This document shows, piece by piece, positions 24,001-30,000 of a DNA stretch of 35,879 bases. Location of the stretch: IMG/VR virus record IMGVR_UViG_2548877009_000012; one strand, written 5' to 3'. The DNA is from a virus (Duplodnaviria; Heunggongvirae; Uroviricota; Caudoviricetes). How positions within the stretch are numbered: position 1 is the first letter of the stretch; every line of letters starts with the position of its first letter. A program made the position numbers.

Positions 24001-27000
24001 CAAAAATAAGTAAATCATGTCAACTATCACGGTGAGAAACCATGACATTTCTGAACCAGTTAATGCTGTACTTCTGTACGGTGGTCTGTGTGCTGTATCT
24101 CCTTTCGGGCGGATACCGGGCCATGCGTGACTTCTGGCGCAGACAGATTGACAAAAGGGCCGCTGAGAAAATCAGCGCCAGTCAGTCAGCCGGAAGCAAA
24201 CCCGAAGAGCCGCTCATTTAGCGGCAACTTTCTTAATCACACCTTTCGACGAGAAAATCCCATGTCAGAAATTACATCCCTGGTCACTGCTGAAGCAGTG
24301 AAGGACGTCCTGCGCTCTGAAGAAGTCCTGAGCGCACTGAAACAGAAACTTCGCCATAACCTGGAAGCGCGTCTTGATGCAGAAGTGGATGCCATTCTGG
24401 ATGAACTGCTGGGCGCACCGGCAGCTCCGGAGCCGGAAGGCATCGCGGGAGAGGGGAGTGCTTCAGATAGCGGTGACCCCACACCTGACAGCGACATGAT
24501 GATGTAAGCATGCGTCAGGGACCATCGGTGTGTGCCGGTGGTCTTTTTTATTGTTGTGAGCTTCCGGATTGCGGGAGGCGGGGTATGTACCAGATGGAAA
24601 AAATCACAACAGGTGTGTCATACACCACGTCAGCGGTGGGAACGGGCTACTGGTTCCTGCAGTTGCTGGACAGGGTTTCCCCGTCTCAGTGGGCGGCAAT
24701 AGGCGTGCTGGGGAGTCTGCTGTTTGGTCTGCTGACATATCTGACGAACCTGTATTTCAAAATTAAAGAAGACCGGCGTAAGGCGGCGCGGGGAGAGTAG
24801 ACGATGAATAAACAATACGAACTGGTTGTTAAAGGGATAAATATTTACCCGGATAAGATTACTGTTACTGTGGCGCTGGAAACTGGTGGGTATACGTCAC
24901 TGTTGTTGCCAAATGTGGTGATTGATCTTGATCGTGTTGAAGGTGCCCCGCTGGAGTTTTACGAAGCTGAGGCGAAAAAGAAGGCGAAGCAGTTTTTCAT
25001 GGATATTGCTGCCGGGTTATGTGAAGGGAACGAACCGTTGCCGGAAAAGCGCCTCTGTTCAGAAGAGCGGTATACCATACAAATTAACAATGCATATAAC
25101 ACGATACAGTCAGAAAAAGATGATATCGAATCACGCATTGAAAAACTGGAGAACAGCGTCGTTGAACTGAATAAAAAACTGTCGGTGCAGATCCCTTCCG
25201 AAGGTGAAAAAAAACGCCGCGATGAGCAGTTTGCTGCGTTTGACGATTATTGTCGGAAAGTGATGAGCAGAAATCTCGCAGAGTGTTTCCGTATTCAAAA
25301 AAACAGAGAGCGCTCTGCAAATAGTGAGATTCTGGATAATTTTTTAAAGGGGACGCATCTCGCCAGTGATTGTTTCATTGCTCATTCTTTTGGTGGCTTT
25401 CATGAGGCCATCAAACATGATGTTGAGAGAAGTCCAGGTATCCTCTGTTCCATTCCCGTAAGCATCGAAATAGACACAAATACGATAACCGGTGAACTCG
25501 TTACCGCCGGAGTCGGTATATTCCGTCATGAGGGGAACGATGCCAAAGGTTCCTTTACAAAAATCGGGCCGTTCTTTCTGAAGGTAGAGCGATAGTTTGT
25601 TAAGTACCCATCCGACAGCTCGCTCATTTTGGTTTATTTTCGTATCGCGAAACAAAAATTCGAAGCGGCCAGATGACGCATGGGTGCAACCAAATACCGG
25701 GGCGTATTCATCAACCTTTGGTGTTCCTGAAAACATGCAGTCCGTGCTCTCGAATGCAGATGAATTGCTGTTGATCCACTTAACAAAAGAAAAAAAGGTC
25801 TGAATCGCTTGTCTGTCTGAATATTCAACAAAATCCTCAAGGTGTGTCTCGATCAGTTCCGGGTGTTTACGAAAGTCATAATATTGACCGGGACGATATT
25901 TATGAGTGGTTGTTTTATCCCATGGTTGTGCTCTGCGTCCCTGTAAACGGAGGTCTGCCGCTGGATAGATAAGCATAAGTAATCTCCTGGTGGAATGTAA
26001 TCCACGATCATCCGGGGAAATTAAGAACCCGCCAGTGCCCACCACTGGTGGGGTGAAGGCTTAACATATCCAGGGATTCGGAACCGATAAATCCTGATAA
26101 ATATCCATGAACACCAAAATCAAATACGGCCTGTCGGCTGCCGTTCTGGCGCTGATTGCCGCAGGGGCGCCTGCGCCTGATATTCTCGACCAGTTTCTGG
26201 ATGAAAAAGAAGGTAACCACACCACGGCATACCGTGATGGTGCGGGTATCTGGACCATTTGTCGTGGTGCCACCAGGGTGGATGGCAAACCTGTCGTCCC
26301 GGGCATGAAGTTGTCGAAGAAAAAATGCGACCAGGTTAACGCCATTGAGCGTGATAAGGCGCTGGCATGGGTGGAGAAAAACATCCGGGTGCCACTGACT
26401 GAACCCCAGAAAGCGGGGATCGCGTCATTCTGCCCGTATAACATTGGCCCCGGTAAGTGTTTCCCGTCGACGTTTTATAAACGAATTAATGCAGGCGATC
26501 GCAGGGGAGCGTGTGAAGCGATTCGCTGGTGGATTAAGGACGGTGGCAGAGACTGCCGTATCCGCTCAAATAATTGCTATGGTCAGGTATCCCGTCGTGA
26601 CCAGGAGAGCGCGCTGGCGTGCTGGGGTATCGACAGATAAGCAGAATATTTTGCTGAAAAATGACGTTGGCCAACGCGGACGGATAACACGAAATCCTGC
26701 GAACTGGCAAAACCTAAGTGAATAAAAGTAAAAACCCCGTTTGTTGGCAGCAAGCGGGGTTTTGTGTTTCTGACCTTGGATAAGGCAAGGGAGAACATGG
26801 AAAAGTATAAACGAATTCTGTTGAGGTTGACTATGAAAAACGGCCCTGAACTGAAAGCGCCAGTAAGTGATGACATCAGCAGAGCGCTGGCTTTTGCTAT
26901 TAAGTGGGTGGCGGTTGGTATCGCTGTGTCTCCGATACTGTATGGGCTGGCAAAACTGGTCATTGCGTTGAAATCGTGAAGGGAGGATTAAACATGTCAG

Positions 27001-30000
27001 ACAAACTCATAATGCTGGCGAAGATCCTCTGTGTAATCGTCGGCATTTCATTTTCACTAATGCTGGTTGCTCTTTTTCTTTCCATGGGCTGGATGATGTT
27101 ATCTTCGTCGGGGCTGCTGGGGTGAGCATAAACCGAATGCTTTCCGCGTTTACCGTTATTCTGCTGGTGGTCTGTGGTGCGCTTAGTCTGGGGCTGAATC
27201 ATTACCGCGATAACGCCATCATCTACAAAGCGCAGCGCGATAAAAAAGCCAGAGAGCTGGAGCAGGCAAACGCAACCATTACTGATATGCAGGTGCGCCA
27301 GCGCGATGTTGCTGCGCTCGATGCAAAATACTCGAGGGAATTAGCCGATGCGAGAGCTGAAAATGAAACTCTGCGTGCTGATGTTGCCGCTGGTCGTAAG
27401 CGCCTGCGGATCAACGCCACCTGCTCCGGTACCGTGCGTGAAGCCACCGGCACCTCCGGCGTGGGCAATGATGCCGCCGTCGAACTCTCTCCGGTTGCTG
27501 GACGAAACGTTCTCGGTATCAGAGACGGAATCATCAGCGACCAGGCTGCATTGAGAATGCTTCAGGAATATATCCGCACTCAGTGTATTAACTAGTATTT
27601 TTGTTATCCGGAGAATGCATGAAGAAATTACTGGTAACCGTAAAGCCTTTTCAGGGAACAATTCCGTTCCGTATTTTGCAGCGTGGTCGTGTTCTTGTTG
27701 AAGGTTCGTTCAGTGGTAAATGTACGCAATTACACTCCCGGACCTTTCAGGTGAATGCCACGAATGAAGAGCTAACCGTTGAGTGTACGATGAATGCCGC
27801 TAAATGCCGTATGGTATCGGCTGCATTACAGCCAGTGTGTTGAGCGACCTTATTATCCATGCGCGGTATTGTCGCCGTATTCCCGTATTAACAGAGACCG
27901 CAGCCCGACAGGGAGACTCCTCTGCGCGAGTGTGCGGGGATAATCAAAAACGATACACACCGGGGTTTACCGCGTTAACGGAGCGCGGCGTTGTCCCCTC
28001 ATAGTCGCCTGTCCTGTGCGATGGTGGAAGAAACCTGACGATGTGTTACCTCACAAGACCTGTTATGTCATGTGTCTGATTTGTGATTTAAGTCGGATAA
28101 TTGTCGTTGCCATTAAGCAGAGGATTGATGACCGACAGGGTGGCATTGTTAGAATAAGACTTATTCTTATCTGTGCCGGGAATGAAAATGAAAAGAAATC
28201 TTCCGTTAATTATTTTGTTGTCTTCTCTGGTTATGGGCTGTACGCAACATAAAACAGATATGCCCCGACAGTTGGTTAAGGCATTACCACAATATCCGGC
28301 CTATGCAGCGGCAAATTATATAAAGGGACGGGTTGATGTGAAGTTTGATATTGGTGCTGATGGTACTGTCACCCGAATTGAGTTTATCCGTTCAGAGCCA
28401 CACCATCTGTTTGATGAGCAGGTTGTAAAGGCGATGGCAAAATGGCGATTTGAGAAGGACAGGCCGCGTAAAGGCGTGAAGAAAACGTTTATCTTTAGTC
28501 CTTCTGCACCCTGATTATTTCATCAGAAATTAATTATCACTCTGTTGTTATTCTGTACATCCCGGCTGGGTAAGTCTTGTTCCGCCGGGTATGAAGATGA
28601 AATATTGTTGGAGGACAGTGGGTACCTGCTCCTGTAACCGAACGTTCATTTCTCGTTATTTGTCATGCTGGCCGGGCGCAGGTGCGTTGCATCTGTTGCC
28701 AGCCTTCTCCTGCAGGCTTCAATAACCCACGCTGAAAAGTTACCGGACCCTTTATGCTCAAGGGCGATGTTGATCTGTTCAATCATGTGATTGGGGAAAC
28801 GGATATTGCGGGTTGTGGTTCTGCGGGTCCGGTTTTTCGATGACATATTTATTTCCTTTACTGATTGCCATATGACGGGGATTTTACATGGCTGAGCTTC
28901 GTACACTCCAGAGCAGAATCAAAACACTGAATACCCGACGGGTGAATATTCTGAAGGGTGAACAGCGTCGTGTCAGTGGCAGTGCACGTGTTTCCCTCAA
29001 GCGTCATATCTGGCTCAGGGATGCCGGGCAGTGCTGTCTCTGTGGTCGTGTGGTTGACCTCTGTGACAGTGAACTCGATCACCGAATTGCACTTCAGTTC
29101 GGTGGTGGTAATGAGGAGACGAATCTCTGGACGCTCTGTACCGAATGCCATCGACAAAAGTCTGCTCGTGAAGCGGCGGGTGGTATGCCGGACCCGACGC
29201 TGCCGGAGGTGTCCGGAGGTAGTGGCAGAGCGGACGACATCATCGGACTGTAACCCGACCGGGGGGGGTATCATTCGGCGTAAAAAACGATCGCTCCGGA
29301 CACCGCGCCCCCTCTCACGCAGAGAAAAAATTCCCGTTTCAGGGCAGTTAACATGTTAACTGGCTGTCCGGGCATTTTTGCGGTTTTTATCTTTATTATT
29401 CAGTTTGTTGCGTGGAAAAAATGTTAACAGGCTTTTTCAGCAAATGTTAACCAGGCAGCAGTTAACATTTGCGGCATGAGACGCCGGGAAAAATGGCTGA
29501 ACCATACCCGGCTGAGTGCGTTCTGGACCCGGGAGGAGGCTGTGCTGACAACGCAAAAACGAAAATTTGCGCTGGCGCTCATGTCCGGGAAAAACAAAAC
29601 AGCGTCAGCCATTGCCGCCGGTTATTCGGCGAAGACAGCCAGGGTTAAAGGCTCGCAGCTGGCAAAAGATCCGGAGGTGCTTGCGTTTATAGCCCGTAAA
29701 CAGTGCGAGACGGTGGAGGTGAATGAGGTTCCTGTTTACCGGCAGAAAAAATCAGAGCAGGAGGATAAACCCCGTCGCCGTGAGGCGGCTGCAATACCAC
29801 AGCCGGACGAAACAAATCCGGAGATGCCACCGCCCGTGGTGATATCTCCTGGTATTGAGTATATGGAGGACGGTCTTCCCGATCCGGTGAAAGCGATGGG
29901 GCGTCTTCTGGTGGAGAACATTAATACCGACCCCAGGCTGGCGCTGGATGCGGCTTATAAGCTGGCGCAGTTCACGCACCACAAAAAAGGGGATGCCGGT

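Follow-up and report, generated by a model that had tools for sequence, protein, structure and literature searches.

In phage lambda the endolysin gene R and the i-spanin gene Rz are adjacent. Here we analysed two small open reading frames (ORFs) of 60 and 43 amino acids (aa), ORF1 and ORF2, that separate R from Rz in a 35,879-nt stretch of Caudoviricetes DNA (IMG/VR record IMGVR_UViG_2548877009_000012). This whole stretch is referred to as the window, and it represents the late region of a lambdoid, Shiga toxin (Stx)-phage-like E. coli prophage. As judged by sequence comparison, ORF1 and ORF2 are genuine, conserved and mutually unrelated microprotein genes of the late lysis cassette, and the main yield of the analysis is that two routinely annotated 'hypothetical proteins' are real genes. 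Small accessory membrane proteins of lysis cassettes are a known kind, and the ORFs are already catalogued in PGAP and PHROGs, one of them also in a list of ribosome profiling (RIBOseq) signals.

Several described systems come close to this arrangement. The S21 holin has two transmembrane domains (TMDs) and a charged C-terminal tail, and a dual start in its single gene gives phage 21 an intrinsic antiholin form. Like the S21 pinholin and antiholin (S21-68 and S21-71), ORF1 and ORF2 would be small inner-membrane helices of the same cassette; unlike them, each has one helix, no charged tail and no match to a holin model. P2 LysA is an antiholin whose gene lies between the endolysin gene K and the Rz-like lysB (PMC3091744). 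It shares with ORF1 and ORF2 the position in the cassette and the proposed character of a non-essential integral membrane protein of the lysis module, but it has four predicted TMDs (PMC3091744), against a single helix in each of the 60-aa and 43-aa products. Their sequences showed no similarity to LysA, and P2 belongs to a different phage group. The Mu releasin gp25 (DUF2730) helps the release of signal-anchor-release (SAR) endolysins. Like ORF1 it is small, cytoplasmic and tethered to the membrane, hardly extends into the periplasm, and has its gene a few genes away from that of a SAR endolysin (PMC9239132). ORF1 differs from gp25 in its length of 60 aa, its C-terminal helix and its basic 28-aa N-terminal segment; the predicted architecture is reversed, DUF2730 was not matched, and ORF1 also occurs beside a glycoside hydrolase family 108 (GH108) endolysin (locus L006) whose N-terminus shows no hydrophobic segment. 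Mycobacteriophage LysF1b and LysA2b are described as accessory proteins with a single TMD that regulate lysis together with a main holin-like protein, with genetic evidence behind them; they differ from ORF1 and ORF2 in their Gram-positive-type host and unrelated sequences. The direct sequence families are phrog_1115 for ORF1, and phrog_4906 and XECs191/ECs_1966 for ORF2, all of them catalogue entries with function listed as unknown.

Neither ORF carries the sequence marks of a holin, a spanin or a releasin. The charged hydrophilic C-terminal tail of holins is absent, as ORF2 ends in ...SSSGLLG and ORF1 has only 'KS' after its helix. An i-spanin has an N-terminal TMD and then a domain that reaches across the periplasm; here the ORF2 helix is followed by about 14 residues at most and the ORF1 helix by 2-7, and neither product matched the i-spanin family PF03245. 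There is no lipobox of the o-spanin or u-spanin type in either, and Cys13 of ORF2 sits in LCVIV within the helix. Holin models in Pfam and PHROG matched neither ORF, whereas the true holin of the cassette matched PF04971. Pfam and the PADLOC defence models gave no match to either at E <= 0.1, and searches of NCBIfam and Protein Data Bank (PDB) sequences returned nothing significant. A literature search with the RefSeq accessions and lysis-cassette terms retrieved no functional study of either family. The features of the cassette are as follows.

24585-24800, + strand: S21-type class II holin (pinholin) gene, 71 aa, dual start MYQMEK (Pfam PF04971, E 1.7e-32)
26107-26640, + strand: endolysin gene R, a phage lysozyme (PF00959, E 7e-25)
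26731-26763, + strand: intrinsic-terminator hairpin (AAAACCCCG...CGGGGTTTT) at the 5' edge of the ORF1 cassette, 15 pairs (terminator scan)
26764-26798, + strand: second, weaker stem (CCUUG/CAAGG and UGUUUCU/GAGAACA), from minimum-free-energy and centroid structures
26797-26979, + strand: ORF1, 60 aa (phrog_1115; PGAP WP_062896309.1)
26994-27125, + strand: ORF2, 43 aa (phrog_4906; PGAP WP_001280927.1)
27122-27595, + strand: Rz, i-spanin (PF03245, E 2.6e-39)
27348-27554, + strand: Rz1, o-spanin lipoprotein embedded in Rz (PF06085, E 6.9e-21)

PGAP names a homologue of the holin 'class II holin family protein' and labels R as 'lysozyme' or rrrQ. The N-terminus of R is Gly/Ala-rich, weakly hydrophobic and SAR-like (mean Kyte-Doolittle value 1.5 for segment 5-23), and Rz1 probably starts at ATG 27363, with the lipobox VSAC. 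Chromosomal prophages of Shiga toxin-producing E. coli were 99.6% identical to a 1.7-kb stretch around ORF1 and ORF2; in the best-matching strain, 2013C-4282, both small ORFs are labelled hypothetical proteins by PGAP. An earlier reading of this locus, made from the sequence alone (the sequence-only reading), had described R and Rz as normally adjacent. This is correct for lambda and does not apply to the phage group of the window, in which the R-Rz gap is a known variable slot that holds the antirepressor gene ant in 933W and BP-4795. The roughly 90 nt after the R stop (26641-26730; …GGATAACACGAAATCC…GTGAATAAA) are conserved in 933W and in Salmonella loci, upstream of the point at which ant or the ORF1 cassette is inserted.

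Coding evidence for ORF1 and ORF2

ORF1 extends from ATG 26797 to TGA 26977-26979, with the ribosome-binding site AAGGGAGA 2-3 nt 5' of the ATG. It matched phrog_1115 over its full length in a hidden Markov model (HMM) comparison (residues 1-60, E 1.5e-40). The window and Salmonella alleles differed at 36-40 sites, for example 11, 3 and 26 at codon positions 1, 2 and 3, and the ratio of nonsynonymous to synonymous substitution rates (dN/dS) was 0.13-0.16 at dS 0.76-0.98. Across all divergent pairs (dS 0.65-0.98) dN/dS was 0.08-0.18, and change was mostly at the third position. On the strength of these allele comparisons, ORF1 is under purifying selection across genera. The start and Shine-Dalgarno sequence were also conserved, E. 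coli having an ATG and Salmonella a GTG preceded by TAGGGAGG. None of the 19 distinct ORF1 nucleotide alleles, and none of the 15 distinct ORF2 alleles, contained an in-frame stop, while the worst alternative sense frame of each ORF accumulated 60-129 stops over the same alleles. A longer, 71-aa ORF1 from GTG 26764 was considered and rejected, as this GTG lies within the terminator T tract and the Salmonella homologues begin at the ATG position. Open antisense frames were present across the region; an antisense gene across ORF1 was rejected, since Salmonella locus L095 has no antisense ORF of at least 20 aa there.

The N-terminus of the ORF1 product contains a conserved basic segment, YKRILLRLTMKNG-LE-x-AP, whose conservation across subfamilies is at least that of the helix. 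Residues 38-58 are marginally hydrophobic (Kyte-Doolittle 2.1, summed Hessa dG +3.1); the hydrophobic part carries Lys36 and Lys53, and Lys or Arg is conserved at two of its positions. AlphaFold2 predicted helices at residues 3-14 and 23-59, the latter a 37-residue helix with a predicted local distance difference test score (pLDDT) of about 85. Our own alignment-free hydropathy score placed the ORF1 helix closer to the SAR segment of R than to the helix of ORF2. A second subfamily of ORF1 has the C-terminus ...LYGVARLIxAIRWW.

ORF2 extends from ATG 26994 to TGA 27123-27125 and encodes 43 aa. The strong ribosome-binding site reported for it by the sequence-only reading was confirmed as AGGGAGGA at 26980-26987, 6 nt before the ATG and immediately 3' of the ORF1 stop; it is conserved, since most loci encode IVKGGL[N/S]M in the frame that overlaps it. 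ORF2 matched phrog_4906 over its full length in the HMM comparison (residues 1-43, E 3.1e-21). Divergent allele pairs gave dN/dS values of 0.13-0.4, indels were whole-codon only, and an alignment of 20 sequences showed no variation at residues S19, F20, M23, V25, W33 and L36. The core of the product, residues 11-29, is strongly hydrophobic (mean Kyte-Doolittle 2.9, summed Hessa dG -3.8), with K4 and K10 on its N side and an uncharged C-terminus, and AlphaFold2 predicted a single long helix at residues 2-38 (pLDDT 89). Hydropathy and AlphaFold2 therefore agreed with the earlier prediction of one hydrophobic helix per product, marginal in the case of ORF1. The two families are unrelated, as a common origin was rejected by an hhalign probability of 0.4%. 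An origin of ORF2 by duplication, whether from ORF1, the holin, the SAR domain or the Rz anchor, was likewise rejected, because local alignments of protein and nucleotide sequences were no better than shuffled ones.

XECs191 (sequence MMGWLMISDKLITLVKSLCVLVGISFLVMLVAIFFSTAWRVLTLSGLVG) is among the intergenic ORFs with a RIBOseq signal in E. coli O157 Sakai (Hucker et al. 2017, PMC5597208). In lysogeny broth (LB), its transcriptome and translatome values were 30.0 and 12.6 reads per kilobase per million (RPKM), with a ribosome coverage value of 0.43 and a coverage of 0.55, and the prediction for its product is an inner-membrane location with a single transmembrane helix (PMC5597208). By sequence it is the 933W-type homologue of ORF2 and corresponds to ECs_1966 in the current Sakai record, between ant and Rz of prophage Sp10; the two entries were paired by sequence and length, their coordinates being about 140 bp apart between record versions. 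Translation of an ORF2 homologue thus has published RIBOseq support (PMC5597208), and the two small ORFs that the sequence-only reading noticed between R and Rz were borne out as genes by the PHROG and PGAP assignments, the dN/dS values and the open frames.

We consider it very improbable that ORF1 and ORF2 are chance or decaying spacer frames that were called by annotation pipelines and have no function. In favour of this view are their very small size, the lack of a curated family for either, the occurrence of frameshifted or truncated copies, and the open antisense frames that also span the region. Such an origin is at odds with the purifying selection on ORF1 across genera, the absence of sense-frame stops from every allele, the conserved start codons and Shine-Dalgarno sequences, homology blocks that begin at or beside the ORF2 ATG, the RIBOseq signal of XECs191 and the lack of conservation of the antisense ORF across ORF1.

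The upstream hairpin, the Rz junction and the distribution of both ORFs

The terminator hairpin at 26731-26763 has an A tract before it and a T tract after it, and is potentially bidirectional. Folding of 26722-26800 (79 nt) gave -31.4 kcal/mol (z -4.7). The hairpin lay just 5' of ORF1-family genes in nearly all sampled contexts from E. coli, Salmonella and Klebsiella, with the Serratia copy excepted, and was found among others in loci L006, L009, L091-L099 and L101. It was kept whether the preceding gene was R, ant, a GH19 or GH108 endolysin gene, or a tail spike gene. The stem CCCCG/CGGGG was invariant, and the next inner pair covaried (AU, UA, UG, GC) in 6 of 11 variants. In the second stem, at 26764-26798, the Shine-Dalgarno sequence of ORF1 and the beginning of its AUG are base-paired, and the CCTTG...CAAGG...GAGAA of this stem was also found in Salmonella loci. 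The layout of the ORF1 cassette, with the terminator first and the gene second, is the reverse of the classic moron layout. A known RNA element in the R-Rz gap was rejected: Rfam gave no match for 26500-27300 at gathering thresholds, and at permissive settings only a sub-threshold rimP-leader match over the hairpin.

A simple consensus search found no sigma-70-like promoter on the + strand between R and Rz. On the minus strand, a weak promoter-like site (26833-26804, 9 of 12 matches) lies within ORF1, and such sites were fewer than expected by chance in the region. With respect to a type I toxin-antitoxin module, which would combine a small hydrophobic toxin with an antisense RNA that has a promoter and terminator of its own, the region thus showed this weak minus-strand site, no promoter for the sense strand and no Rfam family at gathering thresholds. 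Given the terminator upstream and the lack of a detectable promoter, only Q-antiterminated late transcription would reach ORF1, ORF2, Rz and Rz1, and the hairpin would insulate these genes in the lysogen. For the same reasons an exclusion role in lysogens, which the sequence-only reading had offered as one option, is unlikely.

At the 3' end of ORF2, the TGA overlaps GTG 27122-27124, which opens the Rz frame (GGGGTGAGC). This overlap, as the sequence-only reading had pointed out, is present in the window, and we found the GTGA conserved in 80 of 87 loci, namely in all 80 with the Rz type of the window. The distance from the ORF2 stop to the opening of the Rz frame was -4 or +7 nt in 84 of the 87 loci. 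Rz of the 933W type starts at ATG-AAC-CGT (MNRV), 7 nt after ORF2, and the codon aligned with this ATG is ATA in the window lineage; Rz must therefore start there at the overlapping GTG or at ATG 27137. PGAP chose ATG 27137, which leaves the Rz membrane anchor without an N-terminal basic residue. We favour GTG 27122 as the probable start, because only this codon yields the N-terminal basic residue (MSINR...) expected of a type II membrane protein. The Shine-Dalgarno sequence of ORF2 is much stronger than that of Rz.

The region comprising both ORFs matched 1785 of 5426 complete E. coli genomes (about a third), 276 phage records, all with ORF2 at least, and 411 IMG/VR loci. In the listed E. coli matches both ORFs were annotated by PGAP. 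Most of the phage-record matches covered ORF2 only, and most of those phages were named Stx phages; with most Stx phages, the DNA homology ran from query position 193 or 198 to 329, that is, from 5 nt before the ORF2 ATG or from the ATG itself to the ORF2 stop, at which the query also ended. Among plaque-forming phages, PhiR12_1 has both genes, and 933W and BP-4795 have ORF2.

ORF2 was essentially restricted to E. coli-type prophages. With one genome per species (185,579 representatives), its single match was a 328-bp contig (L010, NZ_JPLE01000251.1, labelled Xanthomonas pisi) encoding a 933W-like ORF2 allele, and the tiny size of this contig makes E. coli or phage contamination probable. An exhaustive HMM search of 1.84 billion representative proteins gave 29 ORF2 matches at E <= 0.001, of which 12 had already been returned by the first ORF2 search and the others were mostly short fragments. 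A wider distribution of ORF2 was rejected on these two scans. ORF2 was directly 5' of Rz in 84 of 87 loci, and it stayed before Rz where ant replaces ORF1 (933W, BP-4795 and Sakai Sp10) and where another small hydrophobic ORF fills the ORF1 slot. The ST131-type prophages L007 (1286-1849) and L075 contain, in order, a small hydrophobic ORF, ORF2, a C-terminal remnant of ORF1, a 28-aa ORF (MSAELIRAMAFAIRIVAIAVLVWAIRWW) and Rz, and this reshuffled gap points to frequent recombination among these mini-genes.

ORF1 was found in four genera (Escherichia, Salmonella, Klebsiella and Serratia). The Salmonella copies have no ORF2 beside them and, read from the sequence, stop about 10 nt short of the Rz ATG; they follow holin_2_3 and lysozyme, holin_2_1, lysozyme and antirepressor, or holin_3_1 and GH19. 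Nine ORF1-family contexts were sampled outside the E. coli ORF1-ORF2 loci. Six of them placed ORF1 directly before an i-spanin-type gene (L091, L095, L096, L098, L101 and L102), and the remaining three were two baseplate modules (L099 and L100) and a rearranged locus (L097). In E. coli strain 0-4, a two-holin GH108 cassette is followed by ORF1-ORF2 and then by a 60-aa lipoprotein gene, with no Rz. In the E. coli GH108-endolysin cassettes L006 (1834-2016) and L009 (1675-1857), the 60-aa lipoprotein gene occupies the expected place of Rz, and no Rz-like gene is nearby; the product has the lipobox LVGC and three Cys in its 30-aa mature part, and might serve in exclusion or else in lysis, as an unusual factor of the outer membrane.

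Competing explanations and a possible role in lysis

That both ORFs encode proteins is highly probable. A measurable effect of ORF1 and ORF2 on lysis is more tentative, and we regard it as somewhat doubtful. The reading we favour, one that could fail as readily as hold, is that they are non-essential, late-expressed accessory membrane microproteins that modulate lysis, a function we infer from context. ORF1 is a mobile cassette headed by the intrinsic-terminator hairpin, and in its product a single C-terminal helix of marginal hydrophobicity would tether a short and conserved basic peptide on the cytoplasmic side. ORF2 is a young gene restricted to E. coli-type prophages, and its product would be one strongly hydrophobic transmembrane helix; in the window lineage its translation is probably coupled to that of Rz via the GTGA overlap. 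Both would be made along with holin, endolysin and spanin by antiterminated late transcription only. The products would then insert in the inner membrane, with the predicted topology, and modulate the lysis programme as non-essential factors, their helices touching those of a further membrane component, for which pinholin TMD2 and the Rz anchor are candidates. A lysis-modulating role appeared the most economical on account of position, presumed co-transcription with the lysis genes and membrane character. P2 lysA offers a positional precedent for such a role (PMC3091744), and Mu gp25 is an example of a membrane-tethered peptide that regulates a SAR endolysin (PMC9239132).

A number of observations weigh against this reading. 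Position alone ties ORF1 and ORF2 to lysis timing, spanin function or exclusion, and neither was recognised by models of holins, antiholins, spanins or DUF2730, or by those of NCBIfam, PADLOC or PDB. ORF1 is found behind four different holin/endolysin types, and both class I and class II holins and endolysins of the families GH24, GH19 and GH108 are represented beside it. Its kin in Klebsiella quasipneumoniae (L099, 2501-2671) and Serratia marcescens (L100, 2501-2770), members of the ...RWW subfamily with 51-54% identity, lie in baseplate modules of myovirus-like prophages, between a tail-spike gene (PF18352) and sheath-initiator/Baseplate_J genes, so the ORF1 cassette is not tied to lysis genes. 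The variety of partners, together with these distant members, weakens a partner-specific model. In L006, the ORF1-ORF2 pair precedes the small lipoprotein gene in the absence of Rz. The helix pattern W-x-A-x-G-x3-S...L-[YF]-G-L of ORF1 (residues KWVAVGIAVSPILYGLA) resembles S21 pinholin TMD2, with 0.7% of shuffles scoring as high, but the resemblance is not significant (hhalign probability 3.8%). The constraint on ORF2 is moderate, with 20, 18 and 27 variable sites by codon position and dN/dS of about 1 in close, recombinant pairs, and the XECs191 RIBOseq signal is low and comes from uninduced cultures. Frameshifted and truncated copies exist, in keeping with non-essential genes. Lambda lyses without ORF1 and ORF2, which are therefore dispensable for lysis, and a separate antiholin would be redundant because the window holin already has the S21-style dual start MYQMEK.

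Two rival readings are plausible. ORF1 and ORF2 may be mobile accessory genes (morons) unrelated to lysis that target the host envelope or competing phages, superinfection exclusion and the modulation of a host membrane protein being examples, and that sit after R only because the gap tolerates insertions; we consider this unlikely, at perhaps one chance in four. They do behave as inserted genes. The gap accepts unrelated inserts, with ant in the ORF1 slot of 933W, in BP-4795 and in Sakai Sp10 and a phage antirepressor gene in L008; small lipoprotein genes follow the microprotein genes in L006 and L009, and the window itself has a moron-like neighbour, a TonB_C lipoprotein gene at 28185-28514. 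ORF1 kin between spike and baseplate genes fit the same picture, and the Klebsiella copy there retains the same upstream hairpin, which suggests that hairpin and ORF1 move as one cassette. However, exclusion requires expression from the prophage, which is not expected with no predicted promoter on the + strand and a strong terminator directly upstream of ORF1 rather than downstream, and RNA and ribosome coverage was low in uninduced Sakai. The six of nine ORF1-family contexts directly before an i-spanin-type gene, and the almost invariable joining of ORF2 to the Rz start, also weigh against this rival.

The other rival concerns ORF2 only, and we think it improbable. ORF2 would be mainly a cis-acting upstream ORF. 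By being translated it would supply the weak GTG of Rz with ribosomes, and perhaps bring the mRNA to the membrane, and in this way set spanin dosage, while the peptide has little or no function in trans. The stop/start overlap in 80 of 87 loci, the Shine-Dalgarno sequence so much stronger for ORF2 than for Rz, and the ATA of the window lineage, which limits Rz to the GTG of the overlap or to a later ATG that gives no N-terminal basic residue, are all compatible with it, as are the weaker constraint on ORF2 than on ORF1 and the single, tight and young cluster formed by the ORF2 family. Nevertheless, Rz of the 933W or O157 type has its own Shine-Dalgarno sequence and an ATG 7 nt after ORF2, yet ORF2 is retained; L006 keeps ORF2 without Rz; and particular residues of the peptide are invariant, with dN/dS of 0.13-0.4 in divergent pairs.

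A more far-reaching version of the lysis-modulating reading, which we also regard as improbable, is that the hairpin-ORF1 cassette and ORF2 could form an unrecognised class of lysis-cassette microproteins, in which the ORF1 helix mimics pinholin TMD2 and tunes hole formation, and the recently born, Rz-coupled ORF2 controls spanin dosage or membrane delivery. If so, ORF1 and ORF2 would constitute a new regulatory layer in lambdoid and Stx-phage lysis, and hence in the timing of Shiga toxin release. The burst size of a phage is set by its lysis timing, as is, in Stx phages, the moment at which the toxin is released. Should an effect on pinholin triggering or spanin function be shown, a common, overlooked component would be added to the textbook pathway. 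ORF2 also offers a clean case of a taxonomically restricted microprotein gene abutting the start codon of an essential gene.

Other features of the window

Three further features lie upstream of R.

24088-24507: DUF826 gene
24804-25595: DUF1327/YdfR-type gene
25347-25976, minus strand: ORF of unassigned family

The DUF1327 ORF of the window is unusually long (263 aa). The minus-strand ORF (210 aa) is situated between the DUF1327 gene and R, with an overlap into the 3' end of the former, and had no match in Pfam, PHROG, NCBIfam or PADLOC. Directly after Rz, a 74-aa ORF on the + strand (27619-27843) matched phrog_2571 and is annotated 'hypothetical protein' by PGAP in related prophages. The TonB_C gene (28185-28514, + strand) encodes a small lipoprotein with the lipobox LVMGC and a TonB C-terminal domain (TIGR01352, E 2.6e-15; TonB_C), and a sigma-70-like promoter at 28128-28155 precedes it; the gene is moron-like and might interfere with TonB-dependent uptake. 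Rfam matches above gathering thresholds on the + strand were STnc100 (21326-21539), isrK (14969-15045), C4 antisense RNA (15071-15154) and sRNA-Xcc1 (16053-16142).

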